IMG/VR virus record: IMGVR_UViG_3300045988_062990
Reading direction: 5' to 3' (one strand)
Source of the DNA: a virus
Length of the DNA stretch: 44,559 nucleotides
Below, in pieces: positions 3,353-27,679 of this stretch. The notes under the pieces are model-generated. The model was not told where the DNA came from, did no database searches, and saw nothing but the letters and a program-made list of their open reading frames with translations. Made by a program: the position numbers and the translations under genes. Position 1 is the first letter of the stretch, and each line of letters opens with the position of its first letter.

Positions 3353-3461
3353 AAGTAGTCTAAGTAGTTAAAAATCGGTTTTTGCGTAAACTTTCGCCTA
3401 ATACGCGCGTACTTAGAGGAAGTTACACGCAAAACCTTAAAAACAACTACTTTGACTACTT
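3353..3461. repeat. Palindromic site 1 (candidate attP / module-boundary element). Its arms are perfect inverted copies of the arms of site 2 at 21333-21445.
   Basis: 3353-3387 is the reverse complement of 21411-21445 (35/35). 3414-3461 is the reverse complement of 21333-21380 (48/48). The internal dyad is centred on TACGCGCGTA (3402-3411). Each arm carries tandem AAGTAGT motifs. Confidence 0.85.
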
Positions 3462-3480
3462 AAACCCCCTCCCGTGGCAT

Positions 3481-3510
3481 AGAAAAAGAACGCACGATTA
3501 TCGTGCGTTC
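3481..3510 (-). terminator. Intrinsic terminator of the integrase gene
   Basis: The stem GAACGCACGA/TCGTGCGTTC encloses the stop codon. On the - strand it is followed by TTTTTCT. Confidence 0.65.
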
Positions 3511-5060
3511 TCTATTCTGTAAACAAACCCAAAAGTGTGTTTTATGAAGAACACAGAGTTCGGATTTGCACTATTTGGTGGAGCATAACACCCAATATCC
3601 GAACTCGTGAGAGTAGCGGTATTATTGCCCGAAAGATTGAATGTTAGCACAATCCGCTTTCCACCATCTTCATCGTCATACACATATACAGAGTTTACCA
3701 ATGTATCAATCACGCGCCGTTGGTAATCCTCATCATCAACATTCCCGCTCTTGAACGAAGTAAGCCAATACCTAATGCGGTTCTCGTTCAAGAGCGGTTT
3801 TTTCATTTCCTCACGGGCGATACGCCCCTCAATATCGGACTTCTCCTGTTCCAGTTCGTCAAGGCGGTCTTTGGTAGCAGAAGTAATGATACCTTGCTCT
3901 ATTGCGGAGACAAGGTTCTTTATTTTTTTCTGAACATCTTTCAGTTCAGCATTGAGACCGTCCAAGTAGGTGGTATCTGCTGATTCTTTTTCGATGATTT
4001 CCATAGCCCGTTTTGCAATAAGGGCGATATTCTCATCAGTCAACACATTCCGAACTGTATAGCGGACTACCAGTTTCTCTATCCAGTCTTTTCGTTCGGA
4101 TTTCTTTTTACAAGCGTGTTCCCGCTTTGCCTTTGTGCATTTGTAGTAATGATGCACCTGCCCTGTTTTTGATGTGCCACTCTCACCGACCATCGGACTA
4201 CCACAATGACCGCAGAACAGTTTGGTAGTCAGCAGATAGTTTTCGTGGGCTTTCGCCTTTGCCCTCGCTTTCCCATTATGCTTGAGCATAGCTTGTACTT
4301 TCTCAAACAGTACCTTGTCTATGATAGCGGGCATACCATCGGGAATAACAATGTCCATGAGCTTGTATGTGCCGATGTATTTCTCGTTTCGGAGAATGGT
4401 CTTGAGACTGTTCTTGTTAAAAGCGTTACCTCGTGCTGTCTTATACCCTCGTTCGTTGCAGTAGTTGATGATTTGGGTAGCCGACATACCATCAGCGTAG
4501 AGCTGAAATATCTCCTGCACGATTTTTGCCCCAACAGGGTCAACAGCGTACTTTCTGTCCTCACCTACGGTATAGCCAAGCAGGAGGTTTGCACCACCAG
4601 TGGCAAGACCTTGGAGGGCGTTCTCTCTGATACCTCGTTTGATGTTACGGGCAAGGTTCTCTGAGTAATATTCGGCATATCCCTCAAGGACAGACTCAAG
4701 GATAATGCCCTCCGGCGTGTCCGGCATGGGTTGTTTTGCGTAATAGACCCGTACCCCATTCTTTTTCAGTTTGGCTTTATAGATAGCAGAGTCGTATCTG
4801 TTACGGGCAAAACGGTCAAGGGTGTACATGATTACCGCTTCAAACTGTCCCTTTTCGCTGTCCTTGATGAGACGCTGAAAGCTCGGACGATTATCTGTTT
4901 TGCCGGAAAGGGCGCGGTCAATGTATTCGTTTATGATGGTAAATCCATTTTTGATTGCGAACTCGTGGCACTCTCGGAGCTGACCCTCTATAGACTCCTC
5001 TCTTTGATTGTGGCTCGAATATCGAGCATAGATTACTGCTTTCGTAGTCTCACCTCCAAT
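3498..5060 (-). CDS. int: Large serine recombinase (phage integrase); start codon unresolved
   Basis: The catalytic N-terminus ..KAVIYARYSSHNQREESIEGQ.. is encoded at 5042-4830, upstream of the first ATG (4829). A Cys-rich zinc-ribbon region (CGHCG..YYKC) and a coiled coil follow. The frame is open from ATT at 5058-5060, which follows an in-frame TGA at 5061-5063. Confidence 0.85.
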   Translation of the reverse strand: MGGETTKAVIYARYSSHNQREESIEGQLRECHEFAIKNGFTIINEYIDRALSGKTDNRPSFQRLIKDSEKGQFEAVIMYTLDRFARNRYDSAIYKAKLKKNGVRVYYAKQPMPDTPEGIILESVLEGYAEYYSENLARNIKRGIRENALQGLATGGANLLLGYTVGEDRKYAVDPVGAKIVQEIFQLYADGMSATQIINYCNERGYKTARGNAFNKNSLKTILRNEKYIGTYKLMDIVIPDGMPAIIDKVLFEKVQAMLKHNGKARAKAKAHENYLLTTKLFCGHCGSPMVGESGTSKTGQVHHYYKCTKAKREHACKKKSERKDWIEKLVVRYTVRNVLTDENIALIAKRAMEIIEKESADTTYLDGLNAELKDVQKKIKNLVSAIEQGIITSATKDRLDELEQEKSDIEGRIAREEMKKPLLNENRIRYWLTSFKSGNVDDEDYQRRVIDTLVNSVYVYDDEDGGKRIVLTFNLSGNNTATLTSSDIGCYAPPNSANPNSVFFIKHTFGFVYRIENAR

Positions 5061-5099
5061 TCACGCTTTCGGTAAAGTAACTCAATGAGAATGACGCGC

Positions 5100-5465
5100 T
5101 CAACCGATAGCGTTTGCTTTATCCCCCTCGTATTCTTTTCGGTCTCCGAAATCATAAACCATTGCCATGAACTCATGCTTGGCTCGGCGAGGTAACGCAC
5201 GATAGACCTTTAGAATGTCCTCCTCGTCCTCATTTTCGGGTACAGCTTTCTCACAGCAGAGGTCTTCTTCATCGGCAAAAAAGTCCATTACAGAGCATTG
5301 CAGAATTTTGGCGAGAGCAAGCAACTCCTCTTGGTTTGGTATAGAACCTCGTTTATTGATGGCAGTCGTGTATGAAGACTGTCCATTTTTTATTTGTTTG
5401 ATAACGGCGGTTAGGTTCGTGCCACGCTCGGCACAGATACGATTGATGTTCTCAGCAAAAGTCAT
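5100..5465 (-). CDS. XRE-family HTH repressor (CI-like)
   Basis: HTH N-terminus (ICAERGTNLTAVIKQIKNGQSSYT..) and an acidic C-terminal domain. It is divergent from a Cro-like gene. Confidence 0.8.
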   Translation of the reverse strand: MTFAENINRICAERGTNLTAVIKQIKNGQSSYTTAINKRGSIPNQEELLALAKILQCSVMDFFADEEDLCCEKAVPENEDEEDILKVYRALPRRAKHEFMAMVYDFGDRKEYEGDKANAIG

Positions 5466-5511
5466 AGAGTTCCCTCCTCGGAAAATAATTCGGATATTTT
5501 GAATTTACCTC

Positions 5512-5540
5512 TTGACAATTCAGATAATAAGAATTATACT
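5512..5540 (+). promoter_or_regulatory. Early rightward promoter (TTGACA-17-TATACT)
   Basis: TTGACA at 5512-5517, a 17-nt spacer, TATACT at 5535-5540. A TATAAT on the opposite strand overlaps at 5533-5538 (leftward promoter). Confidence 0.7.
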
Positions 5541-5552
5541 AAGAACAAGAAG

Positions 5553-5567
5553 TTCGGAATATCCGAA
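5553..5567. promoter_or_regulatory. Candidate operator palindrome TTCGGA-ATA-TCCGAA
   Basis: A perfect 6+3+6 dyad just downstream of the -10. A related half-site, TTCGGATAT, sits at 5489-5497. Confidence 0.55.
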
Positions 5568-5708
5568 TTGACAATAAGAAACCGACCTCTCGAAAACGGC
5601 AATTTTCGGGAAGTTGAAGCGGATTAGTCCTATAACAATAATAACAATAATTCGCCTTTTTGTCAATGGCAATTTCGATTTCAAGAACCACGAAAGGAGG
5701 AAATCTCG

Positions 5709-5903
5709 ATGAGTCAGATTCAGAAGCGAATGGAAGCACTTGGCGTAAAGCAGGTGGATATGATTCTTGAACTGCGTAAGCGAGGTATCACAGTTCAGCC
5801 GCCCGAAATGTCGAGTATTATTCGCGGGGTCTATACCTATCCAAAGGCGAAGCGAGTCCTCGATGAATGTGACAGAATCCTCACTGAACTTGAAGCTCAC
5901 TGA
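5709..5903 (+). CDS. Cro-like / small HTH regulator
   Basis: 64 aa and divergent from the repressor. GGAGG RBS. Confidence 0.65.
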   Translation: MSQIQKRMEALGVKQVDMILELRKRGITVQPPEMSSIIRGVYTYPKAKRVLDECDRILTELEAH

Positions 5904-5990
5904 GTCACAGGTGAGCGACCTCGCAAGACCATTGATGGGGATTTTGGAACGGTTCTACCAAGACCCTAAGAACGAGGAGGACTATCAAAA

Positions 5991-6632
5991 ATGGCTACTG
6001 AGTGTAGAAGAACTAAAAAACGAGTCAACAGAAACCGACTCGTAAGATTACTTATCGTCCTTGTAGTAATTGCGGCTATCGCGTTCGGAATCGGCAGAGT
6101 GACCGCTCCTGCAAAGACAAAAACCGTTACCGTCACGGAGACCGTAGAAGTCCCTGTATATAGCGCAAACAAGCTCCCCGAAACATCGGACATCTTCTAT
6201 TTCGATGTTCCTCTCTCACATAGCTTGCAGAGGTTCATCTATGAAGTGTGTGCCGATGAAAATGTCCCTGTAACACTCATCTATGCAATGATTGAGCATG
6301 AGAGTCAATTTAATCCCGAAATTGTAAGTAAAACGGACGATTATGGACTCATGCAAATCAACGCGGTCAACCACACATGGCTCAACGAGGAGTATCGGTG
6401 TGCGGATATGCTCGACCCTTATCAGAATGTGTTCTGCGGCGTGAAAATCATCGGGTCGTATGTCAGCCGTTATGACGGAGACCTCACGAAAGCTCTTATG
6501 GCTTACAACATGGGTGACTACGGCGCAAGAAAAGCATGGGAGAACGGGGTCAAGGAAATTGCCTATTCCAACACGATTCTCGGTCTCATGCAAAATTACG
6601 AGGAGGTGCTTCAAAATACCAAGAGTAATTGA
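5991..6632 (+). CDS. Membrane-anchored lytic transglycosylase (SLT domain)
   Basis: N-terminal TM helix, then EHESQFNP..DYGLMQIN..AYNMG SLT motifs. Confidence 0.8.
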   Translation: MATECRRTKKRVNRNRLVRLLIVLVVIAAIAFGIGRVTAPAKTKTVTVTETVEVPVYSANKLPETSDIFYFDVPLSHSLQRFIYEVCADENVPVTLIYAMIEHESQFNPEIVSKTDDYGLMQINAVNHTWLNEEYRCADMLDPYQNVFCGVKIIGSYVSRYDGDLTKALMAYNMGDYGARKAWENGVKEIAYSNTILGLMQNYEEVLQNTKSN

Positions 6633-6636
6633 ACTG

Positions 6637-6843
6637 TTGGATAAAAAAGTTGAAACCCTGTTCAATCGACAGGATTTTGAATATCTACTCGAACGGTACA
6701 TGGGGTACGAAGCGGTTCAGTATTTCCGTGATGTGATTGAAGAAATCGAGGATTCCTACAACGGACAGATTGACGAGCTTACCGTACAGAACGAAGACCT
6801 CCGTGAAAAATTGGAGAATATTCGGGAGGTGTGCCGTGAGTAA
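6637..6843 (+). CDS. Hypothetical coiled-coil protein (start uncertain; a TTG is proposed)
   Basis: The open frame has coding-like composition (..QIDELTVQNEDLREKLENIRE..), but no good RBS is visible. Confidence 0.4.
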   Translation: MDKKVETLFNRQDFEYLLERYMGYEAVQYFRDVIEEIEDSYNGQIDELTVQNEDLREKLENIREVCRE

Positions 6844-7234
6844 CAAGAAAATCGGCAACGGCTTTGAAGCTGAGTTTTGCGAGAAGCTGTTCCAAAACGG
6901 CTATTGGGTTCACAACCTCGCACAGAACGCGGCGGGACAACCCGCAGATGTTATCGCAGTAAAAAACGGGACACCGTTTCTCATTGACTGCAAAGTATGT
7001 TCCGGCAAAGTGTTCCGTCTGTCCCGCATTGAGGACAATCAGCGAATGTCGATGAAGCTATGGGACGATAGTGGAAACGGTACTGGTTGGTTTGCAGTAA
7101 AGTTCACCAAGAACATTTACATGGTAGAGCTTTGGCAGTTTGACCTTGCCGATAAAGCAAATCTCTCCGAAGAATGGTTCACCGAATATGCTGAAACCCT
7201 TGAGGAATGGTTAAGGCGGGGTGTTGCAACATGA
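6836..7234 (+). CDS. Holliday-junction resolvase-like PD-(D/E)XK nuclease (RecU/Hjc-like)
   Basis: GTG start after GGGAGGTG. GNGFEAEF..ADVIAVKNG..LIDCK pattern. Confidence 0.55.
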   Translation: MSNKKIGNGFEAEFCEKLFQNGYWVHNLAQNAAGQPADVIAVKNGTPFLIDCKVCSGKVFRLSRIEDNQRMSMKLWDDSGNGTGWFAVKFTKNIYMVELWQFDLADKANLSEEWFTEYAETLEEWLRRGVAT

Positions 7235-8634
7235 ATGTAACTGTATCAAATGTCCTCACCATCGAGAACCCCACGCAGGACGCATTGATGTGGTGCAAAC
7301 GCAACCTCACGATTACGAACCCCGAATATACCAAGAAAGCCCGTATGCACTTTTGGCTCGGAAATACCCCCGCAACGCTGACCCTGTACGAGACGCGCGG
7401 CAACACCTTGGTTCTTCCCTTTGGGACGCTCCGAAACCTGCCGGACTGTATCGCAAAAGAAAGCACCTTTCAGAGCGCGTTTTCTATCCCTGTGAGCGTG
7501 TCTTATGGCGGGGTGGATATTCCACTCTACGATTACCAAAAGACCGCTGTGGACGCTCTGTACGCCGCGAAATACGGTATCTTGCAGAGCGCGGCAGGTA
7601 GCGGGAAAACGCAGATGGGGATTGCCCTTGTAAAGCGGTTCGGAAAGCGCGCCCTGTGGCTCACCCACACACTCGACCTGCTCCGGCAGAGTAAGGCTCG
7701 TGCCGAAATGTATATGGACTCAGACCTCATCGGAACTATCACAGAGGGTAAGGTCAATATCGGTAAGGGTATCACATTTGCCACTATCCAAACGATGTGC
7801 AAGCTCGACCTCGCACAGTACAAGGATTTCTTTGATGTGATTATCGTGGACGAGTGCCACCGCGTAGCGGGAACACCTACCGCTATGACGCAGTTCTACA
7901 AGGTTCTGAACAGCTTGTCGGCACGACATAAAATTGGTCTCTCCGCTACGGTACACCGCTCGGACGGAATGATTGAAGCTACTTATGCCCTACTCGGTCA
8001 TGTGGTTTACACCGTTCCCGATGAAGCCGTGGGAGACAAGATTATGAAAGTAGGTATTACCCCTGTTGGGACAGGCGTGGAAATCAGCCGCGAATGTCTG
8101 AACTCAGACGGTACGCTGAACTACACCAAGCTCATTACCTACCTTTGTAACGACAATTACCGCATAGCGTTCATAGCGTCATGGATTGTATCGGAAGCAG
8201 ACCATTCCTGTCTTATTCTGTCCGACAGACTGGAACACCTTGAACGGCTTATGAACGCTCTCCCTCGAAGTATGAGGGAAAATGCCGTAATGGTTAGCGG
8301 CAATATGACAACAAAAAAGGGAAAGGCTGAACGAGAAAAAGCGATTGAGGATATGCGAAGCGGTAAAAAGAAGTACCTGTTCGCTACTTACTCCCTCGCA
8401 AAAGAGGGGTTGGATATTCCTCGGTTAGAGCGGTTGTTCTTGGCAACACCCAAGAACGATTATGCGGTTATCACACAGAGTATCGGCAGAATTGCTCGTA
8501 CCTTTGATGGTAAAGAGGACGCTATCGCCTATGACTTTGTGGACAATATCCCCTATCTCGTGAAGTCCTATAAAAAGCGGTGTACGACCTACCGAAAGAA
8601 CGGGTGCTACTTCCGCTATACGGAGGGAGAGTGA
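7231..8634 (+). CDS. Superfamily-2 DEAD/DEAH-box helicase
   Basis: Walker A AAGSGKTQ, motif II DECH, later SAT-like LSAT. ATGA overlap with the upstream gene. Confidence 0.8.
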   Translation: MNVTVSNVLTIENPTQDALMWCKRNLTITNPEYTKKARMHFWLGNTPATLTLYETRGNTLVLPFGTLRNLPDCIAKESTFQSAFSIPVSVSYGGVDIPLYDYQKTAVDALYAAKYGILQSAAGSGKTQMGIALVKRFGKRALWLTHTLDLLRQSKARAEMYMDSDLIGTITEGKVNIGKGITFATIQTMCKLDLAQYKDFFDVIIVDECHRVAGTPTAMTQFYKVLNSLSARHKIGLSATVHRSDGMIEATYALLGHVVYTVPDEAVGDKIMKVGITPVGTGVEISRECLNSDGTLNYTKLITYLCNDNYRIAFIASWIVSEADHSCLILSDRLEHLERLMNALPRSMRENAVMVSGNMTTKKGKAEREKAIEDMRSGKKKYLFATYSLAKEGLDIPRLERLFLATPKNDYAVITQSIGRIARTFDGKEDAIAYDFVDNIPYLVKSYKKRCTTYRKNGCYFRYTEGE

Positions 8635-8637
8635 GAA

Positions 8638-11145
8638 ATGAGACTGATTGTATACGATGTTGAGGTTTTTGCCTTTGACTGGATTGTAGTGTTCAAAGAT
8701 GTGGAAACGGGGACGCATACGGTCATTCACAACGACAGCGAAGCTCTCAGAGAGTGCCTGTATGACGATGGTATCTATGTTGGATTTAACTCCAAACACT
8801 ACGACCAATTCATCATTAAAGCCGCCGCAAACGATTTTTCTCCGCAGGAAATCAAGCGACTCAACGATTTCCTCATCGGCGGCGGTCGCGGTTGGGAATA
8901 TGCACCGCTCAAGGCATTTTACTTCCGTTTCAACAATGTGGACATTCGAGACGATGTTCAGTTGGGTCTATCCCTCAAGGCTATCGAGGGTCACATGGGA
9001 ATGGATATTCAAGAAACGGAGGTGTCATTCGACCTCGACAGACCGCTTACAGAGGAGGAACTGCAACAGACCGTTCACTACTGTAAGCACGATGTTGACG
9101 CTACCCACGAGCTGATGAAGCTCAGAGCAGACTACCTCAAGACCAAAAAGAACCTCGGTAAACGAGCGGGAATTGATGAGGTCAAGTCCCTCGCCGCCAC
9201 CAATGCCAAGCTAACCGCAATGATGTTACGGGCAGAGCGTAAAGAATGGGACGATGGGCGAGAGTATGTCTATCCGGCAAACCTCGATACCGCCGTTATC
9301 CCCAAGCCGATACTGGACTTTTTCGAGACCATTCACGATAAGTCCATTCCCGATGAGGTTCTGTTTAAGACCTCATTTGAGATTGAGATTGGCGGTATGC
9401 CCTGTAAATACGCTTGGGGTGGTGTCCACGGCAGTCTGACAGGCTATTACGAGGAAGCAACAGAGGATAGGGTCATTCAGAACAGAGATGTATCAAGTCT
9501 GTACCCCTCTCTGATTGAGATTTACAACTACTTGTCCCGTAATGTCCCCGACCCCGAACTGTTCTACGCTATCAAGCGTGACCGCATACAGGCGAAGCAC
9601 AACGGGGATAAGCAGACAGCAAAGGACTTGAAGCTACCGCTCAATACCGTGTCCGGCGCACAGGAAAACCGCTACAACGACCTGTATGACCCGCTCCCGA
9701 CCCGCTCTCTGCGAATATCAGGACAGTTGTTCCTAACGGTACTTACCATGCGTCTGCTGAACGCCTGTAAGACGATAAAGCTCTTGAACCTCAATACCGA
9801 TGGTCTGATGTACTCCATCGACAAATCGGAACTGGCTCTCGTGGACGAAATCGCCCACGCTTGGGAAACAGAAACGAAGTTTGAGCTTGAGGTCGATGAT
9901 ATTCAGCGGGTTTGGATTAAAGATGTGAACAACCTCTTGATGATTAAGACCGATGGTGAGGTCAAGACGGTTGGCGGCTATCTGAACTATGGCGTGTCCG
10001 TCAAGGGCGCGTGGGCTATCAATAACAATATGGTTATCGTGAAAAAGGCTCTGATTGAGTATTTCGTCCACGGTACACCCGTTGAGGAAACAATCAACGG
10101 CAGTACAGATATTTTCGATTTCCAGTTGATAGCAAAGGCAGGTGCGAAATACCGTGAAGCCTATCACATTGTCGATGGTGAGCAAGTCCCGGTGCAGAAA
10201 GTAAACCGTGTATATGCTACGGCAGACGAGCGGTACGGGAAATTATTCAAGGTCAAAGCTGAGACGGACGCTACTGCGAAAATCGAAATGCTCCCCGACC
10301 ACTGTATCATCGACAATGACAATCATCTAACCATAGACGATGTAGACAGAACATTCTATATCGAAATGGCAAAAAAGCGAATCAATGATTTCTTGGGTAT
10401 CAAGCCCGAAAAGAAAAAAGGAGGAAAACGCAAAATGGCTACTACTGCAAAGAAAGAGACCGTCACTCTGAATGTTTATCAGAAATTGCTCAAGGCAAGG
10501 GAGATGTTCCTGCAAGCCGATGTGCAGAAAACGGGTAAGAATATGCACCTGTCGTTCAAGTATTTCGAGCTTGACGATATTGTGCCTACTGCCACCCGCA
10601 TTTTCAGTGAGGTCGGTCTTATCCCTATCGTGACCTTTACCTCTGATGTGGCAACGATGAAGATTGTCAACATCGACAATCCCGATGAGGAGTATATCCC
10701 GTTTGTTGCCCCGTTCAATCAGATTGCCCCGATTATCAGCAACGCCGGAAAACAGGCTACTAACGAAATGCAAGCCCTTGGTTCTTCCATCACCTATATG
10801 CGCCGTTACCTGTATATGATTGCGCTCGACATTTGTGAGAGCGACAGCATTGACGGTGAGCTTGGCAGACCTGCTCCCGCACCCGCTCCGAAAGCTCCTC
10901 CGGCTACTCCCGAACAGCGACAGGAAGTGAAGCAGGAACTCACCGCTCCGCAGGACAATGCAACCCCGTTGCAGATTAAGGGTCTCAAGGCGGTGCTGAA
11001 AAAGCTCAAGGACGCTGACCCCACCAAGGAGGAAATGATTGCTCAGATTGCAGTTCAGACGGAGGGCTTTACCTCTATCAGTAAGTCTGACTGTGAAACA
11101 CTCATTCAGAAAATCACCGCTATGCTTGAGGGAGGTAACGAGTAA
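8638..11145 (+). CDS. Family-B DNA polymerase with 3'-5' exonuclease domain, fused in frame to an ERF-family single-strand annealing protein
   Basis: ExoI YDVEVF, ExoII NSKHYDQF, ExoIII YCKHDVD. Pol motif A DVSSLYPS, motif C-like NTDGL. From residue 600 the sequence is ERF-like (KYFELDDI..QALGSSITYMRRYL). Confidence 0.75.
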   Translation: MRLIVYDVEVFAFDWIVVFKDVETGTHTVIHNDSEALRECLYDDGIYVGFNSKHYDQFIIKAAANDFSPQEIKRLNDFLIGGGRGWEYAPLKAFYFRFNNVDIRDDVQLGLSLKAIEGHMGMDIQETEVSFDLDRPLTEEELQQTVHYCKHDVDATHELMKLRADYLKTKKNLGKRAGIDEVKSLAATNAKLTAMMLRAERKEWDDGREYVYPANLDTAVIPKPILDFFETIHDKSIPDEVLFKTSFEIEIGGMPCKYAWGGVHGSLTGYYEEATEDRVIQNRDVSSLYPSLIEIYNYLSRNVPDPELFYAIKRDRIQAKHNGDKQTAKDLKLPLNTVSGAQENRYNDLYDPLPTRSLRISGQLFLTVLTMRLLNACKTIKLLNLNTDGLMYSIDKSELALVDEIAHAWETETKFELEVDDIQRVWIKDVNNLLMIKTDGEVKTVGGYLNYGVSVKGAWAINNNMVIVKKALIEYFVHGTPVEETINGSTDIFDFQLIAKAGAKYREAYHIVDGEQVPVQKVNRVYATADERYGKLFKVKAETDATAKIEMLPDHCIIDNDNHLTIDDVDRTFYIEMAKKRINDFLGIKPEKKKGGKRKMATTAKKETVTLNVYQKLLKAREMFLQADVQKTGKNMHLSFKYFELDDIVPTATRIFSEVGLIPIVTFTSDVATMKIVNIDNPDEEYIPFVAPFNQIAPIISNAGKQATNEMQALGSSITYMRRYLYMIALDICESDSIDGELGRPAPAPAPKAPPATPEQRQEVKQELTAPQDNATPLQIKGLKAVLKKLKDADPTKEEMIAQIAVQTEGFTSISKSDCETLIQKITAMLEGGNE
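10435..11145 (+). CDS. ERF-family recombinase, possible independent translation from an internal start
   Basis: AAGGAGG at 10419-10425 lies 9 nt upstream of the in-frame ATG at 10435. The region downstream is a complete ERF-like domain plus a Pro/Ala linker. Confidence 0.5.
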   Translation: MATTAKKETVTLNVYQKLLKAREMFLQADVQKTGKNMHLSFKYFELDDIVPTATRIFSEVGLIPIVTFTSDVATMKIVNIDNPDEEYIPFVAPFNQIAPIISNAGKQATNEMQALGSSITYMRRYLYMIALDICESDSIDGELGRPAPAPAPKAPPATPEQRQEVKQELTAPQDNATPLQIKGLKAVLKKLKDADPTKEEMIAQIAVQTEGFTSISKSDCETLIQKITAMLEGGNE

Positions 11146-12167: not shown

Positions 12168-12181
12168 GGAGGATAAAGACA

Positions 12182-12622: not shown

Positions 12623-12636
12623 GGAGGGTAAATAAC

Positions 12637-13152: not shown

Positions 13153-13200
13153 TGGGTATGGGGAGCGAAAGCTCCCCTCCCTCTAAAGGAGGTGCCGTAA

Positions 13201-14225: not shown

Positions 14226-14227
14226 CG

Positions 14228-14563: not shown

Positions 14564-14793
14564 GTTACAAGCTCAAGACTGCAAACGGTAAGGTTGCTTT
14601 CCTGCTCAAGACGGGTAAGGATTTTGTGAAAAATCAGATGGCGGTCGCTTCCGCACAGCACATTATCGACACTGGTGAAGTCAAAAAGTCCGATATTGAG
14701 GGCTACCCCATCAATGTGGACGATAAGTGGTACTTTGCCGGAGAGGTGTTCAAGAAGTCCGCTTCCCGTAAAACGGAGGGCGTTGCGGAATGA
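14560..14793 (+). CDS. Hypothetical protein
   Basis: ATGA-type overlap with the neighbouring genes. Confidence 0.6.
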   Translation: MSYKLKTANGKVAFLLKTGKDFVKNQMAVASAQHIIDTGEVKKSDIEGYPINVDDKWYFAGEVFKKSASRKTEGVAE

Positions 14794-15083
14794 GAACATT
14801 TTACTCCGAATATGTCCAACACTGTATGCGTTTCTACGCTCGTCACACTAACCCGAAGTTCCGCAGTGACGCAGATAAAAAGAATTGGTTCGCCTGTGAT
14901 AGCGCACTGAAAGGCTTTACGGACAAGGAACAGGAAATGCTCCTTACTATCTACCGTGAGGGAGATACGATTCCCGATAACATCTACAACCTGTCCGTTG
15001 CGTTGGAGATTAAACAGGATATTCTTTGGAAGCTCGTGAATGAGCTTGAACGCAAAGTTGCGAAAAGGAGGGGACTTGTGTGA
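14790..15083 (+). CDS. Possible sigma-70 region-4-like / ArpU-like transcription regulator
   Basis: The C-terminal HTH-like segment (..IYNLSVALEIKQDILWKLVNELERKV..) is only a weak resemblance. Confidence 0.35.
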   Translation: MRTFYSEYVQHCMRFYARHTNPKFRSDADKKNWFACDSALKGFTDKEQEMLLTIYREGDTIPDNIYNLSVALEIKQDILWKLVNELERKVAKRRGLV

Positions 15084-15868
15084 CCTGCTACGAGAACATA
15101 CCTACAGAACTGAAAAAACTGAATCAGTGGGTTTGTACTCGTGGGGATAGCAAAGTCCCGATGAAAGCATGGGAGAATGAAGCCGCGTCCTCCGTCAACC
15201 CGCAAACATGGGCTGATTTTGATACCGCGCACAAATCCGTGTCAGAGGGTCACTACGATTACTGCGGGTTCGTGTTCAACGACAACGGACTTGTAGGTGT
15301 GGACATTGACGCGGGATATGACGAGGACGGGTTTCTCTCTCAGCTTGCCGCTGACATTATCGGTAAGTGCCAAAGCTATACGGAGAAATCCAAGAGTGGA
15401 CGCGGCTTTCATATCCTGCTCAAAGGAGACTTGCCCTTTAAGGGCAAGAACAACCTTGCGGGTGTGGAGATTTACAAGTCCTCCCGATACTTCATTATGA
15501 CAGGCGATACGCTCCTCTATCGCACCATCGAAGAAAATCAGAGCGCGATTGAGTATATTGTCGAGAAGTATTTTCCCGATACCCGACAGGAGAAAGAGAC
15601 TCCGACCTTTGGTGGTCGTATCTACTGCCCGATATGGGAAATGCCCGAAAACAATCGTATCAAGCTCCGTCCTGTCTATCCCCGCATACCAAACGGAAGC
15701 CGAAATATCTGTCTGACCTCCCTTGCGGGTATGCTCCACAACCAAGGGTACAGTAAGCAACAGATATATGACGAACTGCTCTACTGCAACACAGTTGCCT
15801 GTGACCCTCCCCTCGACAGAGGTGAGATACAGACAATTTGTAACAGTGTGACACGGTACAAACGATGA
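15080..15868 (+). CDS. Bifunctional primase-polymerase (prim-pol) with a PriCT-like C-terminal domain
   Basis: GTG start. ..VGVDIDA..SKSGRGFHIL.. archaeo-eukaryotic primase motifs. C-terminal ..GSRN..L.S.AG.. PriCT-like segment. Confidence 0.7.
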   Translation: MTCYENIPTELKKLNQWVCTRGDSKVPMKAWENEAASSVNPQTWADFDTAHKSVSEGHYDYCGFVFNDNGLVGVDIDAGYDEDGFLSQLAADIIGKCQSYTEKSKSGRGFHILLKGDLPFKGKNNLAGVEIYKSSRYFIMTGDTLLYRTIEENQSAIEYIVEKYFPDTRQEKETPTFGGRIYCPIWEMPENNRIKLRPVYPRIPNGSRNICLTSLAGMLHNQGYSKQQIYDELLYCNTVACDPPLDRGEIQTICNSVTRYKR

Positions 15869-16071
15869 AATACGAACCCTATCACGCGCTTATAAACGCG
15901 ATTATTCTGCAAGCGGTCAAGGATTACCGCACAGCGTTGGACGATGGGAACACCTCCGGCATTGCGGAGTGTGAGAGGTTCTTCCGCTCGGATTGGTTCA
16001 CTTTCCTCACCGATGTTGACGGAGAAATCATTATCCGGCAGGTTCAGCGGGAGATAACACGAAAAAGATAA
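15865..16071 (+). CDS. Hypothetical protein (68 aa)
   Basis: Overlapping start and stop with the upstream gene. Confidence 0.55.
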   Translation: MKYEPYHALINAIILQAVKDYRTALDDGNTSGIAECERFFRSDWFTFLTDVDGEIIIRQVQREITRKR

Positions 16072-16089
16072 ATAATTGCACAAATAATA

Positions 16090-16118
16090 TTGACAGATAA
16101 TCTTTTTCGTGTTATACT
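16090..16118 (+). promoter_or_regulatory. Sigma-70-type promoter (TTGACA-17-TATACT) in front of the MazF-like gene
   Basis: TTGACA at 16090-16095, a 17-nt spacer, TATACT at 16113-16118. Confidence 0.6.
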
Positions 16119-16171
16119 CCAATCGTAAAGAGACAAGAAGTAGTCTCAATAAGATTAAGGAGGTTTATAAA

Positions 16172-16531
16172 ATGACTGAGTATTACCGTGGGGACATTTT
16201 CTACATAACGCCGTTTTATACGGTCACTGGCTCTGAGCAGAGAGCGGGGAGACCCGGCGTGATTGTGTCGAATGACACAAACAACAAGTATTCTCCGAAT
16301 GTGGAGATTGTATTTCTGACCTCACAGGAAAAGAAACCGCTCCCCACCCATGTCCCTGTGATGTGCCGTGTTCCGTCCACTGCCCTCTGCGAGAATATTC
16401 AGACGGTATCGAAAGACAGGCTCTCCACATTCATTAAGTCTTGCACCACGAAAGAGCTGAAAAACATCGACAACGCTCTGCTGGTGTCCCTTGGTATCAG
16501 CGACTCCTCGCCCGTTGGGGGGGGGGATTGA
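16172..16531 (+). CDS. PemK/MazF-family toxin-like endoribonuclease; its 3' end lies in a G10 tract
   Basis: GDIFYI..GSEQRAGRPGVIVSND..N..SPNVEIVFLTS..PTHV..ALCENIQTVSKDRL matches the MazF/PemK pattern. AAGGAGG RBS. Confidence 0.75.
   Translation: MTEYYRGDIFYITPFYTVTGSEQRAGRPGVIVSNDTNNKYSPNVEIVFLTSQEKKPLPTHVPVMCRVPSTALCENIQTVSKDRLSTFIKSCTTKELKNIDNALLVSLGISDSSPVGGGD
16517..16526. repeat. G10 homopolymer at the end of the MazF-like ORF
   Basis: Ten consecutive G, counted directly. The +1 frame beyond it stays open for 36 codons and stops at 16635-16637, overlapping the next ATG. Confidence 0.9.
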
Positions 16532-16633
16532 TGAAACTGCGCCGCAGGAAAGCTCACACGCAGAGGTGGAGCGAGACCTTTACAAGTCTCTATACGAGCA
16601 AATTCTTGATAAATTGATGGGAGGAAACAACCG

Positions 16634-17299
16634 ATGATTAAAGTAGAAAACATCGACACTTGGGGCTTTGAACACGCTATCCGTGGTATGAGAAACCCCT
16701 TGAACAGTTGGTCGAGGTCGGATAGCTCATTCGAGGATTATGTCCCCGATTACGCTATGGACACGGCACGAACCTATCCCTGCGTAAAAATCGGGGTGAA
16801 TGACCTCAAGCTCATGCGTCAGCTTTATGTCGGCGGTCAGCCGCACAGAAAGTACCTCCGACAGATTTTCGCAGTCATGGACATCACTGCTCCGCTCTAT
16901 TGGTGGAAAGAGTTTGACACTTATAAGGTCGGTACGACCGCCAACTCCTGTTCTACCATGCACAAAATCGCGGCAAAGGAGTTTGAACTCTCCGATTTCA
17001 GCACGGAACATTTAGATAGTGTGTCGTTAGATACTTTTGAGTATATTATCGCTCAGTTGGAATATGACCGTAAACGCTATCTGAAAACCAAAGATAAAAC
17101 ATACTGGTGGCAGATGGTACAGCTTCTTCCCTCAAGCTACAATCAGCGGCGCACAGTCAGCATGACCTATGAAAATGTGATGAATATGCTCGACTACCGC
17201 GAGGGTCACAAACTGGACGAGTGGCGGGAGTTCTGCAAAATTCTAAAACAATTACCGTATGTGGAGGTGATTAGAGATGGCAAAAAAGAAAGAACCTAA
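16634..17299 (+). CDS. Hypothetical protein (221 aa)
   Basis: Coding-like. There is a faint resemblance to the ThyX fold, but the RHR..S..S.RY catalytic motif is not present. Confidence 0.65.
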   Translation: MIKVENIDTWGFEHAIRGMRNPLNSWSRSDSSFEDYVPDYAMDTARTYPCVKIGVNDLKLMRQLYVGGQPHRKYLRQIFAVMDITAPLYWWKEFDTYKVGTTANSCSTMHKIAAKEFELSDFSTEHLDSVSLDTFEYIIAQLEYDRKRYLKTKDKTYWWQMVQLLPSSYNQRRTVSMTYENVMNMLDYREGHKLDEWREFCKILKQLPYVEVIRDGKKERT

Positions 17300-17687
17300 G
17301 TCTTGGTGTGACATTCAATCGGATTTTGAAAATATGCAGAGAATGTCTTGTGTTCCTATTGGTATTCGCAAAGTCAGAAAAGACTATATTTTTGACGAAA
17401 ACCAGTCTGTGAAATGGAACAGAGAACAGGTTGAGAAAAACAATCTTGCGTATGAGAAAGAAGTTGCTCGACTTAACACATTGAAAAATAAAGAGCGAGA
17501 CCAAATCCTTGAAGACATTTACTACACCATTCAATGTGATGTTGGACATGATTTATCGCGTGAAAATGCGATACTGTTATGGAATTGGTCTTACGAGTTA
17601 GGACATACCTGTGGGATTTACTGTGTTATAGCTCATTTAGAGGGCATTATCACACTTGTTGACAAAATGTTAAGTGGGGTGAAGTAA
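17277..17687 (+). CDS. Hypothetical protein
   Basis: Open frame that overlaps its neighbours by a few nt. Confidence 0.6.
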   Translation: MAKKKEPKSWCDIQSDFENMQRMSCVPIGIRKVRKDYIFDENQSVKWNREQVEKNNLAYEKEVARLNTLKNKERDQILEDIYYTIQCDVGHDLSRENAILLWNWSYELGHTCGIYCVIAHLEGIITLVDKMLSGVK

Positions 17688-19205
17688 ATGGCAAGTGACA
17701 GAGAACTTTTTGAACTGAGCAACGGCAGGTGCATTATGGACGAAGACCTGTCCGACAAAATGTATATTATCAAGTCCTATCACCCCGAACGGGCAGACGA
17801 AACCTCCTCCGGCTTTGAGTGGTCTGAAATGGGTATGGCAAACCTGTTCGGTATGCTCTACAACCGTGAAGCGCGGTACTGCACCGAACACAAGAGTTGG
17901 TACACCTACTTTGAGGGGGCGTGGCGTAAGGACGAGGGTGCAATCCTTGTCTCCGAGAAAATCAAGGACTTTGTTCGCTTGATGATACTCTACTGCGGCG
18001 AGATTACGGACGATGATACCCGCAAGGCGTACACCTCGTTCGTGAACAAGATGGGTGACAGGCGTATGCGCGACCGCATACTCAAGGACGCAACAGGTGA
18101 ACTCCGCATTTCTGCTACGGATTTCGACTCCAACCCCTACCTCATCAACTGTCTCAACGGTACTTACTCTTTGGAGGACTACTCGTTCCGTGAACCACGG
18201 TGGGACGATTTTCTCACAATGCAGACCCGTTTCCGGCACACAGTACGCCGTGATGTGAAGTGTAAGCGGTGGGAACAGTTCATTGATGAAGTCACACAGG
18301 GCGATAAGGATAAAGCCGACTTCCTGCAACGCGCCCTTGGGTACTCCATGCTTGGCATGAGCAATGAGGAGTGTATGTTTATCCTCCATGGTAAAACGAC
18401 CCGCAACGGCAAGTCTACTCTGCTCAACACCATTGAGTATATGCTTGGGGATTACGCCAAGGTTGCCCCTGTCGGTATGATTTGTCGAGGTGACAGACAG
18501 AAAGACGTGGAAGCCGCTTCCCCTACCCTTGCAGGACTGAAAGGCAAACGGTTTGTCACGATGAGCGAGAGCAACGAGTACGGCAAACTGGACGAGGAGA
18601 AAATCAAACAGCTTACAGGCGGCGAGGAAATCTCCGCTCGTGCGCTCTATCAGACCGCTATCACCTATCGCCCTCAGTTTACTTTGTGGCTCTCCTGTAA
18701 TGACCTGCCGATGGTTACGGACAAGTCCCTGTTCGCTTCACAGCGTATCAAGGTGATTGAGTTCAATCGACACTTTACGCCGGAGGAGCAGGACACTCAC
18801 CTCAAGGACGAGCTGACCTCCACGGAAGCTATGAGCGGCATTTTCATGTGGCTTGTGCGCGGATATATCAAGTACAAGGAAAACGGTCTCGCAATGTCCA
18901 AGAGCTTGTCTGATGTGGTCGAGCGGTATGAGCGGGACAACGACCTTGTGTTGCAGTTCCTTGAAAACCGCTGTGTACGACTGACCGACTACTCTGACAA
19001 CAGGACTGACGCTAAGAACAATATTATCAAGGCGAAAGACCTGTATCAAGCGTTCAAGCTGTGGGCGAAGTCTGAGGGAGCGTATGTGCTATCGGCGCGG
19101 AAGTTCAATGCTGAGATGGAACGCCACCCCGAATGGTTTGACCGTAAATCGACTTCCAGTGGATTTATGATTTATTGGGGCTTGAAGCTCAAGGAGGTAG
19201 TATAA
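17688..19205 (+). CDS. D5/P4-family primase-helicase (NTPase)
   Basis: Walker A HGKTTRNGKST, Walker B-like FVTMSE, and the general D5_N/P4 C-terminal layout. Confidence 0.8.
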   Translation: MASDRELFELSNGRCIMDEDLSDKMYIIKSYHPERADETSSGFEWSEMGMANLFGMLYNREARYCTEHKSWYTYFEGAWRKDEGAILVSEKIKDFVRLMILYCGEITDDDTRKAYTSFVNKMGDRRMRDRILKDATGELRISATDFDSNPYLINCLNGTYSLEDYSFREPRWDDFLTMQTRFRHTVRRDVKCKRWEQFIDEVTQGDKDKADFLQRALGYSMLGMSNEECMFILHGKTTRNGKSTLLNTIEYMLGDYAKVAPVGMICRGDRQKDVEAASPTLAGLKGKRFVTMSESNEYGKLDEEKIKQLTGGEEISARALYQTAITYRPQFTLWLSCNDLPMVTDKSLFASQRIKVIEFNRHFTPEEQDTHLKDELTSTEAMSGIFMWLVRGYIKYKENGLAMSKSLSDVVERYERDNDLVLQFLENRCVRLTDYSDNRTDAKNNIIKAKDLYQAFKLWAKSEGAYVLSARKFNAEMERHPEWFDRKSTSSGFMIYWGLKLKEVV

Positions 19206-19421
19206 ATGAACGCTTCTTGCTTAGATGAGAAAGGACGCTTTAAGTCCTGCCCGTACAGAGTATATACCGATGAGCATAAGGCGGTTTTAAGAGGACAGGG
19301 TGATTTTACCTCACAGTGTTTTTACCCGTGCATTGGCGAGGGGTGCATTGCATATCATGTGGGCGTTTGCCTACGCCTTGCCGCCGCGCTAAAGGAGGAC
19401 TTGAAAAATGACGAACGATGA
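19206..19421 (+). CDS. Cys-rich small protein
   Basis: 71 aa with several Cys pairs. The ATG immediately follows the upstream stop. Confidence 0.55.
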   Translation: MNASCLDEKGRFKSCPYRVYTDEHKAVLRGQGDFTSQCFYPCIGEGCIAYHVGVCLRLAAALKEDLKNDER

Positions 19422-19770
19422 ACGCCGCCCGACAGGGCTACTCCATTCTGCTGACGAACTGCGTCAGCTTATCCGTGAAAATCCTACCCTCCCGCTCATC
19501 GTGTTTGCGGGTGAGGAAGCCAACAGCGGGGACTACTCATATATGAGTTGCAGTTATGTCAAGGCATATAAGGGAGAATATCTCGACTGCTCTCAAAGCG
19601 TCAACGACTGTATGTGCTTCACCGACAGGGACGAGTTCGAGGAAGCTGTCGCAGATAGTCTTGCCGACAGGAATTGCACCGATGAGGAGTTTGACGCTCT
19701 TGTGAAAAAAGAAATGGCAGAGTATGACCCCTATTGGAAGCCCTGTATCATTCTGAATGTGGACAACTGA
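19408..19770 (+). CDS. Hypothetical acidic protein
   Basis: Open frame with a 14-nt overlap with the upstream gene. Confidence 0.55.
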   Translation: MTNDERRPTGLLHSADELRQLIRENPTLPLIVFAGEEANSGDYSYMSCSYVKAYKGEYLDCSQSVNDCMCFTDRDEFEEAVADSLADRNCTDEEFDALVKKEMAEYDPYWKPCIILNVDN

Positions 19771-19782
19771 GGAGGTAAAACG

Positions 19783-19956
19783 ATGGCACGATATTTCAAA
19801 CTGGTCGAAATTGACCGCGACAGTTTTATCGAAGCTACGGGAGGTGATTTAGATTGTCTTCAAGTGGTCGATGTATGTGAGGGTATTGGGTATGTTGCTA
19901 TTGCTGATACCGAGACAGAAATGACAATCGACTTAGATGTTTTCGAGGAGGAATGA
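19783..19956 (+). CDS. Small hypothetical protein (57 aa; below the ORF-track cutoff)
   Basis: GAGGAGG at 19769-19775 lies 7 nt before the ATG at 19783. MARYFKLVEIDRDSF... stop at 19954-19956. Confidence 0.5.
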   Translation: MARYFKLVEIDRDSFIEATGGDLDCLQVVDVCEGIGYVAIADTETEMTIDLDVFEEE

Positions 19957-19958
19957 TT

Positions 19959-20153
19959 ATGTTCATTTGGCTCACAAGCCCGACTATCGGGCAGGTGCTT
20001 GTAAATCTCAACCTCGTCACCGCTGTCACTTGCGTACAGAGTAGGAACGCCGTTTGTTTCACAGGCGGCGAGGAGGATTATATCGTGGTTACGGAGTCCC
20101 TTGAGGACATCTACGAGCAGATTCAGTCCGCAGAAAAGAGGTACAGAAAATGA
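19959..20153 (+). CDS. Hypothetical protein
   Basis: GAGGAGGA RBS. The second ATG (19959) has better spacing than 19953. Confidence 0.5.
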   Translation: MFIWLTSPTIGQVLVNLNLVTAVTCVQSRNAVCFTGGEEDYIVVTESLEDIYEQIQSAEKRYRK

Positions 20154-20491
20154 CAATTCCCGAAAAACTGAAAATCGGCGCAAAGGTCTACGGTGTAGAA
20201 ATCACGAACAAGCTCGACTTGGGTAATGTGAATTACTCCGGCGAAATCTCTTACACCGACTTGGTTATCCGTATCTGTCCGAACGCACAGGCAAAAATGG
20301 AAGCCGACTTTCTTCACGAAATGATTCACGGTATGCTCGACCATCTTGGCTATACCGAACACGATGAGAAAAAGGTGGACGAGCTTGCAAATGTGCTTCA
20401 CATGGTAATACTGGACAACCCCGCCGTGTTCGCACCTGTTAAGGAGGGACAGCACGAAAATGTTTGCAATTCAGAATCAGAGGACAGGTAA
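20150..20491 (+). CDS. Putative zinc-metallopeptidase-like protein (HEMIH motif)
   Basis: The HExxH motif LHEMIHGML is the only recognisable feature. Confidence 0.45.
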   Translation: MTIPEKLKIGAKVYGVEITNKLDLGNVNYSGEISYTDLVIRICPNAQAKMEADFLHEMIHGMLDHLGYTEHDEKKVDELANVLHMVILDNPAVFAPVKEGQHENVCNSESEDR

Positions 20492-20699
20492 GTTCCTCTA
20501 TGGTACAGACTACCGTTACAATCCCCCACGACAGAGAACGAGCTTCAATGAAATGCGTACCTACTCCGATTTGAGATATGCCGTAGCTGACTACAACAAT
20601 CGCAGGTGTGGGAAAGACTATCGCATTGTAGTCCTCAAATCGGTAGAGGTCAAGCGAGTTATCGACTATGACTGTGAGGAGGGTTACGCATGGAAATGA
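20460..20699 (+). CDS. Hypothetical protein
   Basis: AAGGAGGG lies 11 nt upstream of the ATG. Confidence 0.55.
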   Translation: MFAIQNQRTGKFLYGTDYRYNPPRQRTSFNEMRTYSDLRYAVADYNNRRCGKDYRIVVLKSVEVKRVIDYDCEEGYAWK

Positions 20700-20971
20700 G
20701 AAAATGCGGTGTTCTCGCTTTCTGCTTGATGGTATTACTTGGTGCTACCGCCTGTTCCGCAGGGCGGGACATCAGCCCAACTTACCCGAAAGTAGAATAC
20801 CGCAACAGCTCCTACAATCTCGACCCGTACAACCGTGAAATCCCCATCGAGAGCGGGTATGTATTGGACGAAGCACATTCCTATGATGTGATGGAAACCG
20901 AGGACGGGTACGACATTGTTCTTCATTTCGTGAAAGGCGGTGAGACCGATGGAAATGAAAATGCTGACTGA
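20690..20971 (+). CDS. Putative lipoprotein
   Basis: Signal peptide MEMRKCGVLAFCLMVLLGATAC with a lipobox-like ATAC. Confidence 0.55.
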   Translation: MEMRKCGVLAFCLMVLLGATACSAGRDISPTYPKVEYRNSSYNLDPYNREIPIESGYVLDEAHSYDVMETEDGYDIVLHFVKGGETDGNENAD

Positions 20972-21131
20972 GCTTTCGGGTATGCTTGAGGACATAAATC
21001 CCGTGGAAATTACCTCTCACATACTGGACGGAACGCTCATGTCGTGGCTTGCGAGTTGGAAAATGAAGTCTCAGATGTTGGTGGCTTTCCTGCTCGAAAA
21101 TGAAAAAGCTCGATTATCCGAATCGGATTGA
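20940..21131 (+). CDS. Hypothetical small protein (start uncertain)
   Basis: Last ORF of the early operon. Its 3' end overlaps the first iteron. Confidence 0.4.
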   Translation: MRPMEMKMLTELSGMLEDINPVEITSHILDGTLMSWLASWKMKSQMLVAFLLENEKARLSESD

Positions 21132-21320
21132 AAAATAATCCTAAACGACATTAGGGAGATAATCCTAATCGGATTGGAAAATAATCTTTTCGACTTTTGG
21201 ATTTTCAGACCGAAATCGGAGGGGCGTAGACAAAGGAGATAATTTCTTATCCGAATTAGATACCGATGTTTTTGGGCGGTTGTCCTAATCGGATTGAGAA
21301 ATAGTCTTGTTCGGATTGAA
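21121..21320. repeat. Iteron-like direct repeats AATCGGATTGrrAAATArTC (3 full copies plus 1 partial)
   Basis: Copies at 21121-21140, 21167-21186 and 21287-21306, with a partial copy starting at 21309. Each has the core 9-bp dyad AATCGGATT. Confidence 0.75.
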
Positions 21321-21332
21321 TTGAGGTTTTTC

Positions 21333-21445
21333 AAGTAGTCAAAGTAGTTGTTTTTAAGGTTTTGCGTGTAACTTCCTCTATATAGGAAAATCCCTACTAT
21401 AAGAAGTTACACGCAAAAACCGATTTTTAACTACTTAGACTACTT
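21333..21445. repeat. Palindromic site 2, inverted partner of site 1
   Basis: Perfect 16-nt inverted repeats TTTTGCGTGTAACTTC / GAAGTTACACGCAAAA flank a 27-bp AT-rich centre. The outer arms match site 1 (48/48 and 35/35 in reverse complement). Confidence 0.85.
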
Positions 21446-27660: not shown

Positions 27661-27679
27661 TCAGAGAGGAGGGACAAAT

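Follow-up and report, generated by a model that had tools for sequence, protein, structure and literature searches.

Two copies of a conserved AAGTAGT palindrome in a circular phage genome, a likely replication-origin element of a P4-family helicase

The stretch analysed, called the window below, is the whole of IMG/VR virus record IMGVR_UViG_3300045988_062990, 44,559 nucleotides long. It is a circular assembly with a terminal repeat of 95 bp (1–95 = 44465–44559). At the lysis end an amidase gene (1699–2742) and a holin gene (3046–3339, plus strand) are followed by a long palindrome, site 1 (3353–3461). Past site 1 lie a large serine recombinase gene (the integrase gene, int), convergent with the holin gene, and a cI-like gene. 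The early operon, which is long and runs rightward, encodes a SNF2 helicase, a polymerase-Erf fusion, a YqaJ exonuclease, an archaeo-eukaryotic-type primase (AEP), a P4-family helicase and small open reading frames (ORFs), and is closed by a second long palindrome, site 2 (21333–21445). After site 2 come terS, an accessory operon ending in an XRE-type helix-turn-helix (HTH) gene and a small serine recombinase gene, then terL (25929–27491), the virion genes and a diversity-generating retroelement (DGR). The two palindromes are the subject of this report.

The arms of the two sites are identical in reverse complement and their centres are unlike. In a repeat search of the window, 3353–3387 equals the reverse complement of 21411–21445 at 35 of 35 positions and 3414–3461 that of 21333–21380 at 48 of 48, the second match extending to 58 nt at 93% (3414–3471 against 21323–21380). 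The centre of site 1 (3388–3413, 26 bp, AAACTTTCGCCTAATACGCGCGTACT) contains the decamer TACGCGCGTA; that of site 2 (21381–21410, 30 bp, TATAGGAAAATCCCTACTATAAGAAGTTAC) is AT-rich. The window contains the heptamer AAGTAGT 13 times, where 4.4 would be expected; the two sites account for eight of these, two per arm. Site 2 has a perfect 16-nt inner inverted repeat (21360–21375 and 21403–21418). GC content is 0.33–0.39 in the interior of the sites (0.33 in site 2), against 0.48 in the genome. The runner-up inverted repeat of the window is only 32 nt long at 78%, so chance is excluded for the pair; the paired palindromes are real and far beyond chance. A sequence-only reading of this DNA had described the shared arms, the differing centres, the two heptamers per arm, the inner repeat of site 2 and the gene context of both sites, and was right on each of them. 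By profile search the window holds these two copies only.

Both sites are members of a conserved element of about 109–113 bp, named E here, whose arm pattern matches many IMG/VR contigs. E is present in several hundred (>300) loci of phages and prophages of gut Firmicutes, with 2–3 copies per genome, and in 27 stretches of Firmicutes genomes and metagenome-assembled genomes (MAGs); more diverged copies beyond the arm pattern are added by profile search. Among the named hosts are Faecalibacterium, a Dorea ammoniilytica isolate, Catenibacterium mitsuokai, Criibacterium, Acutalibacter and Oscillospiraceae. E is absent from the cultured phages of INPHARED and the plasmids of PLSDB, both of which were searched. 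The consensus of 28 distinct copies, after orientation, is AAGTAGTnAAAGTAGTT-GAAAATCGG-TTTTTGCGT(R)TAAC...centre...GTTAYACGCAAAA-(variable 10 nt)-AACTACTTTnACTACTT. Over nearly all of its 35 nt, spacer GAAAATCGG included, the arm called 'alpha' is conserved to at least 90%; the other, 'beta', keeps the outer and inner motifs around a variable spacer. The centres are of a few types: TAYGCGCRTA, TAGGAAAATCCCTA and a G/C-run type. Each copy carries two AAGTAGT heptamers per side, the two sides oppositely directed, with an AT-richer core of about 75 bp between them. The inner motif is altered on both arms and in both copies of the L003 group (L numbers denote individual loci). Across host families E is better conserved than the genes that flank it. 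Two truncated copies, in L097 and L084, are broken at the element centre. In L097 (1–1400) a phage remnant of 410 bp lies between the 3' end of host spo0A and a gene pair of an AraC-type regulator and a GH2 protein; it begins exactly at the E centre and continues through the holin gene and a terminator. Locus ends are a poor guide to physical DNA ends at E, some loci being cut at the ends of stored pieces, with E split between L002 and L015 and between L092 and L100.

Three positions are occupied. Copy (i), E(i), is at the border of the replication genes and terS, 60–300 bp upstream of terS in all loci. E(ii) comes after the XRE-HTH gene, to which a serine recombinase gene may be added, and ahead of the terL block. 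E(iii) is at the lysis end: in the window it follows the holin gene beside int, and in other phages it may stand between the genes for endolysin and holin. In one set of loci, 120 of 126 further copies fall in these three classes. The window holds (i) and (iii), which are sites 2 and 1, and has no E(ii); many relatives hold (i) and (ii), 3.3–4.7 kb apart, and L077 holds all three. The positions are fixed among these phages. E often directly abuts its neighbours: its first heptamer is overlapped by the stop codon of the gene before it, and a ribosome-binding site (RBS) stands 12–30 nt after E. Some phages have a holin gene, with an RBS of its own, that begins 12 nt after E. The usual polarity has the alpha arm of copy (i) towards terS and that of copies (ii) and (iii) the opposite way (16 of 16 unambiguous pairs in the terL-centred set of loci). 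Exceptions are L150/L251 and L253/L255; direct copies occur in L253/L255 and in the type-B phage described below.

The tie of E to one helicase clade is strict. Among the terL-centred loci (terL at least 81% identical), E(i) is present in 42 of the 42 that carry a helicase of the window type, and the lone locus without that helicase (L149) has no E. Among helicase-centred loci, E stands downstream of the helicase gene in all 57 with enough downstream sequence. The helicase is 84–99% identical across E-bearing loci; within the cassette from AEP primase to terS it is found in 63 of 63 complete loci at 84% identity or more, and the small ORFs in 8–53 of the 63. E(i) is always between the helicase gene and terS, at a distance from the former of 91 bp in L100 and 2.1 kb, with small ORFs, in the window; the counterpart element of L276, described below, is about 100 bp from its helicase gene. 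The window protein passes TIGR01613 with 209.7 bits (cut-off 108.7), weakly matches the D5-like protein C962R of African swine fever virus and is without a close cultured relative (best matches about 30% identity, plus an unannotated faecal fragment at 63%).

The repeats change together with the helicase. The type-B phage (L149/L275, IMGVR_UViG_3300045988_079422) is homologous to the window in its SNF2 helicase (83% identity), polymerase-Erf (65%), YqaJ (85%), AEP primase (82%), terS (60%) and terL (91%). Its 507-aa helicase is also of the P4 family and passes TIGR01613, with about 20% identity to the window helicase in the ATPase core only. No AAGTAGT element is found in this phage. At the same two positions as E it carries dyads of GAGACA(C/G) repeats, built of GAGACAgTGAGACAC, about 65 bp of AT-rich DNA with TATATA, GTGTCTaaGTGTCTC and extra repeats, at 3771–4010 before terS and at 8070–8250 before the HTH-recombinase-terL block. 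A third phage, L276, has a helicase 65% identical to that of type B and a repeat of its own: about 100 bp past the helicase gene stand two copies of TACACAGA, a 60-bp AT-rich core with the palindrome TACATACATATATGTATGTA, and two inverted repeats. Each of the three helicase variants thus has a repeat type of its own, AAGTAGT, GAGACAC or TACACAGA, in genomes that are otherwise homologous, and by this comparison the repeat sequence appears specific to the cognate helicase. The AEP primase is not the repeat reader, since it is 82% shared with the type-B phage; likewise g20940, the primase and terS cannot set repeat specificity, being common to the type-B phage with its other repeats. The second type-B copy lies 4 kb outside the swapped cassette and yet matches the helicase, which argues for recognition in trans rather than mere linkage. 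The XRE-type HTH protein encoded beside E(ii) was considered as the binder and rejected: the L003 orthologue is located elsewhere, and the L003 elements have a changed inner motif. In L276 (12440–12600) a separate array of about a dozen tandem-like CGACTTT repeats stands directly after terS, followed by GC-rich repeats of the GCGCGCGTG type.

E is probably an origin element of the kind known from Staphylococcus pathogenicity islands (SaPIs), P4 and pRN1, and the site of the phage's own P4-family helicase, present in two copies here and in up to three in relatives. The co-occurrence of E and helicase, the repeat swap at both positions, the constancy of the helicase alone within the swapped cassette, a dyad made of motifs rather than of pairing arms, the published anatomy of such origins and the conservation of E support this interpretation. 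Binding, melting and initiation at E are drawn from analogy with SaPI Rep and P4 alpha and would proceed as follows. The self-loading helicase would recognise the AAGTAGT heptamers, probably via its C-terminal domain; one ring would be assembled per arm and the core melted; the primase and the polymerase would then start bidirectional synthesis. E(i) would be the origin belonging to the replication module and moving along with it. E(iii) would be a second origin, or an auxiliary or control site comparable to P4 crr or to the iteron control loci of plasmids.

Several points weigh against an origin. E(i) in the window is 2.1 kb from the helicase gene and not directly behind it. There is more than one copy per replicon, two in the window and up to three in relatives (L077), and the two or three full copies are squeezed between late genes from stop codon to RBS, whereas SaPIs and pRN1 have a single origin. 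In some phages E lies between the endolysin and holin genes, an odd location for an origin. The natural swap is represented by one type-B lineage (two metagenomes) and one relative at 65%. The positions of E are also those where late promoters are expected. The origin model does not account for a polarity that is mostly conserved, for the strong conservation of the inner motif TTTTGCGTGTAAC or for centre types that go with position, nor for the alpha spacer and the break of the truncated L097 and L084 copies at the centre. The late copies stand fixed ahead of the packaging, morphogenesis and lysis blocks, with a polarity mostly opposite to that of E(i). On this ground E(ii) and E(iii) might be dedicated helicase-loading or fork-control sites, instead of redundant origins, that couple replication to late expression or packaging, or a Ter-like polar pair that sets where forks meet; this is a minor possibility, unlikely on present grounds. 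If true, origin copies would serve the phage as landmarks in the architecture of its genome.

Other functions were weighed against the origin interpretation, recombination foremost. The sequence-only reading had proposed that a recombinase inverts the early arc between the two sites, or that site 1 is the attP. Serine recombinase genes do adjoin E(ii), on its upstream side or 27 bp past its downstream end, and E(iii) has the integrase gene as neighbour; the copies are mostly inverted relative to each other, and the truncated copies of L097 and L084 end at the element centre, all of which would suit a substrate for arc inversion or res-like resolution. The genomes do not bear inversion out. The flanks of 359 E copies with recognisable genes on both sides were scored: 186 join the early region to the terS block, 66 join HTH-recombinase to terL, 56 have HTH-recombinase on both sides, 36 join int to the lysis genes, and the remaining 15 are minor combinations within the late region, with no other kind of joint. 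Inversion would create lysis|early or int|terS joints, and none is seen at the 222 places where early|terS or int|lysis is joined. Every close relative is collinear with the window, as are eight of eight listed loci with its exact integrase protein. Judged as a Hin- or Gin-type system, the bracketed segment is not seen in both orientations, and site and recombinase do not match: three unrelated types of serine recombinase stand beside one and the same element, and small recombinases 73% identical to each other stand beside elements with different repeats (AAGTAGT in L003, GAGACAC in L149). In relatives E(ii) is flanked by the small recombinase gene or by another serine recombinase gene, such as that for a 251-aa protein with Resolvase and Recombinase domains. 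The small recombinase gene of the window is 3.4 kb from the nearest E, and centres differ among the copies of one genome. A role as recombinase substrate is therefore very unlikely. That site 1 is attP is refuted, since E is whole in the integrated prophages L079, L103, L091 and L099. L103 (Dorea) lies beside thiE/thiH/thiG and L079 beside recR/dnaX, with E intact in both. The prophage junctions are about 400 bp from E, at the counterpart of window 3556–3606. The aligned prophage ends read endolysin, E, RBS, holin, terminator, ...GAGTTCGGATTTGCACTATTTGGTGGA, and then diverge into the reverse complement of the 3' ends of tRNA or tmRNA genes, all four at exactly the same string. The segment 3556–3606 is the probable attP, separate from E; its anatomy is as expected for the attP of a serine integrase, with the junction at the palindrome centre and a putative crossover near TTTGGTGGA (3574–3582). 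Because it lies inside the 3' end of int, integration would replace the last ~20 int codons. The L079 (Faecalibacterium MAG) and L103 (Dorea ammoniilytica isolate) prophages are 97.6% identical over 3.6 kb, which reflects either a broad host range with different tRNA-type targets or a mis-binned MAG.

A control site for late transcription, an activator or repressor platform or an insulator whose regulator is encoded in the same swapped cassette, would agree with the placing of E immediately ahead of terS, the terL block and, in some phages, holin, with an RBS 12–30 nt behind; late activators of Gram-positive phages (RinA/ArpU type) are also usually encoded just upstream of terS. However, neither site holds a sigma-70-like promoter or an intrinsic terminator on scanning, copy (i) is inverted relative to (ii) and (iii) although the direction of transcription is the same, E(iii) of the window has no downstream gene, and none of the small cassette ORFs is conserved throughout the E-bearing phages, g20940 being common to the type-B phage with its different repeats. 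This role is considered improbable. The sequence-only reading had further proposed bidirectional terminators or module boundaries. The terminator part is rejected, as no terminator-like match lies inside E, and a holin gene follows E in some phages; the integrase gene has a terminator of its own (3487–3511). The boundary part is supported to some extent, homology often ending 0–15 bp from E in diverged phages. Single strands of E and of its two variants fold as stem-loops of about 100 nt (z = −3 to −8). Complementarity between the arms is not above that expected from the shared consensus, so the dyad would represent protein-binding motifs on duplex DNA and not selection for a hairpin; a hairpin or RNA-structure function was discarded on this ground and because copy (i) is inverted with the transcription direction unchanged. 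No RNA family of Rfam matches either site, the one match in the window being the DGR-associated RT-18 RNA at 44098–44172. A pac- or cos-like recognition site for the small terminase subunit would fit the constant distance class of E(i) from terS, the two half-elements broken at the centre, and the likeness to the anatomy of SPP1-type pac, in which repeats flank a central site. It is contradicted by terS itself, which is 60% identical between AAGTAGT and GAGACAC phages, within the range of 47–73% found among AAGTAGT phages, and which coexists at 31% identity with an intact E. It is also contradicted by the 2–3 copies in opposite orientations and by the placeable contig ends (two related ENA assemblies), which lie in the DGR repeats and not at E; the chance of a packaging function is very slight. 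Conserved terminal inverted repeats around a more variable interior, multiple copies and a location at mosaic joints would be shared with a selfish miniature inverted-repeat element that spreads among phages and is functionless for them. Yet no target-site duplications flank the copies and no matching transposase was found, orientation is mostly conserved, the positions are the same three in 120 of 126 further copies and of no other flank kind in the census, and the repeats switch with the helicase at both positions. Such an origin of E is exceedingly improbable.

E stands at joints of the phage mosaic. Examples of homology that ends 0–15 bp from E are the endolysin swap of L079 against L091/L095 and the gene after E(ii) in L008 against L085. 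Flank pairs are discordant in 1 of 72 cases at 85% identity or more and in 89 of 191 at 68% or more, several of them ending 0–15 bp from E. A conserved homology patch of ~110 bp in diverged phages that encode Erf and YqaJ suffices to place E at such joints. The exchange data are compatible with E as a homology patch and give no evidence of a dedicated exchange mechanism.

Further features of the window accompany these. The ORF at 8638–11145 is single, 835 aa long, with a DNA polymerase (residues 2–592, phrog_1252) fused to an Erf-type single-strand annealing protein (599–831). The integrase ORF lacks an N-terminal ATG, GTG or TTG; the Met position (TKAVIYARYSS...) holds ACG (5045–5043), preceded by a good Shine-Dalgarno sequence GGAGGTGAG (5037–5063, minus strand). 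The assembly index has a shortened integrase call of 443 aa in 66 blocks, and no block among them has a contig above 50 kb. Either ACG serves as the start or the lineage has stopped integrating. No recognisable target site of the small serine recombinase (24826–25398) stands close by in the window genome. The DGR template and variable repeats (43734–43849 and 43942–44057) are 116 nt long and 82% identical. A 26-nt inverted repeat, 85% complementary (25568–25593 and 27649–27674), flanks terL and may be due to chance. Just upstream of E(i) are three 38-bp direct repeats (21105–21142, 21151–21188, 21271–21308) with a palindrome of the TCCGAATCGGA type. Related motifs TTCGGATAT/ATATCCGAA occur in the cI/cro intergenic region (5487–5569) and, in L149, flank the promoter after the second element; the 38-bp repeats and their kin may be repressor operators beside the origin and the start of the late operon. 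The sequence AAAAGAGGACTCTC occurs twice between E(i) and the start of terS (21468–21481, 21489–21502). It tracks terS and not the helicase, since it also stands ahead of terS in the type-B L149 (~4040–4056), and is a candidate pac or late-promoter signal. A terminator-like hairpin after terS (22200–22218) is followed by a near-consensus sigma-70 promoter, TTGACA-17-TATACT (22392–22420), whose upstream region resembles 16051–16095, ahead of a MazF-like gene at 16109. This promoter heads a small-gene operon that ends in the XRE-HTH gene (true start ATG 24598), a layout like that of anti-defence (acr-aca) operons. The coordinates of the main features are given in Table 1.

Table 1. Location of the two E copies and of the associated genes and sites in the window
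Feature	Position	Strand	Remarks
E(iii) = site 1	3353–3461	.	second copy, lysis end; alpha arm on holin side; centre TACGCGCGTA
E(iii) AAGTAGT heptamers	3353–59, 3362–68; 3446–52, 3455–61	+; −	
Large serine recombinase (integrase)	3498–5045	−	ACG at expected start codon
attP of large serine integrase	3556–3606	.	probable; 51-bp imperfect palindrome GAGTTCGGAT-N31-ATCCGAACTC, inside int 3' end
Archaeo-eukaryotic-type primase (PriCT_1)	15080–15868	+	considered the helicase partner
P4-family (D5-like, SF3-type) primase-C-terminal/helicase protein	17688–19205	+	Pfam D5_N, DUF5906, Pox_D5
E(i) = site 2	21333–21445	.	likely origin-type palindrome, border of replication module and terS; alpha arm on terS side
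E(i) AAGTAGT heptamers	21333–39, 21342–48; 21430–36, 21439–45	+; −	
terS, small terminase subunit (P22 gp3-like)	21538–22125	+	93 bp downstream of E(i)
Small serine recombinase (Hin/resolvase type)	24826–25398	+	just upstream of terL

If the origin interpretation is true, it supplies a testable pair of origin and initiator, at the level of sequence, for a large group of uncultured temperate phages whose hosts are Clostridia and Erysipelotrichia of the gut. Searches of cultured phages and of the literature yielded no replication origin for the group, and nothing relevant on the motif or on prophage invertases was found in that literature. The AAGTAGT, GAGACAC and TACACAGA variants are material for studying how P4-family helicases read DNA. 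It is a puzzle that a phage of 44 kb keeps two or three whole origin copies at fixed places of its late region. E marks joints of module exchange among these phages, and the case illustrates that an inverted pair of palindromes beside a recombinase gene need not mean a recombination system. The chief interest, a moderate one, is in the dispersed full copies and the natural swaps of specificity.

The sequence-only reading did not weigh replication and knew of no described phage element of this form, which overlooks the SaPI origins and the stem-loop origins of pRN1 and Bordetella phage BIP-1. In SaPI origins 6–12 iterons directly follow rep; the centre is AT-rich, each side has at least two iterons, and the two sides point in opposite directions. 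The iterons are recognised by a self-loading helicase through its winged-helix C-terminal domain; of this helicase two hexamers are thought to load, one per side, and the repeats are specific to the cognate helicase (PMC9371898). E is similar in having short repeats downstream of a helicase gene around an AT-rich centre, at least two per side and oppositely directed, and the helicases here are in the same P4-family group, that of type B matching the SaPI5 PriRep structure 7OLA (E = 1e-5). It differs in having four heptamers, a strongly conserved inner inverted repeat, one conserved asymmetric spacer and a number of complete copies, 2–3 per genome, of which two are in the late region; E(i) is up to 2 kb from the helicase gene, and its binding is putative. 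The pRN1 plasmid has a 100-bp stem-loop downstream of its gene for a primase, superfamily 3 (SF3) helicase and winged helix, which is necessary, sufficient in cis and movable, and BIP-1 has a similar structure after its replication gene (PMC4234260). E shares with them an inverted-repeat element of about 100 bp downstream of the gene for a replication helicase that folds as a stem-loop of about 100 nt. In pRN1, however, the structure is conserved and not the sequence, and there is a single copy; E conserves sequence motifs, and its arms show no compensatory change. The P4 alpha protein likewise binds origin repeats by a winged helix (PMC4234260). P4-family primase-helicases are common to both, and the E(i)–E(ii) spacing of 3.3–4.7 kb is close to the ~4.5 kb between ori and crr of P4. 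Both of these sites are needed in cis by P4 and have the same octamer; crr, made of 120-bp direct repeats, does not duplicate ori. The P4 primase is of the Toprim type, whereas a separate AEP primase is encoded here, and the second copy of the window is 18 kb away. In the protelomerase targets telRL of N15 and pal of PY54, also long palindromes, the central decamer is identical to TACGCGCGTA (PMC3540006). Other E copies have other centres, and the phage assembles as a circle. A protelomerase target was rejected, the large ORFs of the window encoding the polymerase-Erf fusion, the SNF2 helicase and the P4-family helicase, and no protelomerase gene. Resemblances to dif, parS, hix and IHF sites, judged by eye against their consensus sequences, are partial only. 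Iteron plasmids have extra clusters of initiator repeats away from the origin that control copy number, such as incA of P1; the extra sites of E differ in being whole copies of the palindrome, and a control role for them is putative. In the origins of SV40 and papillomaviruses, sets of short repeats in inverted arrangement load double hexamers of SF3 helicases.

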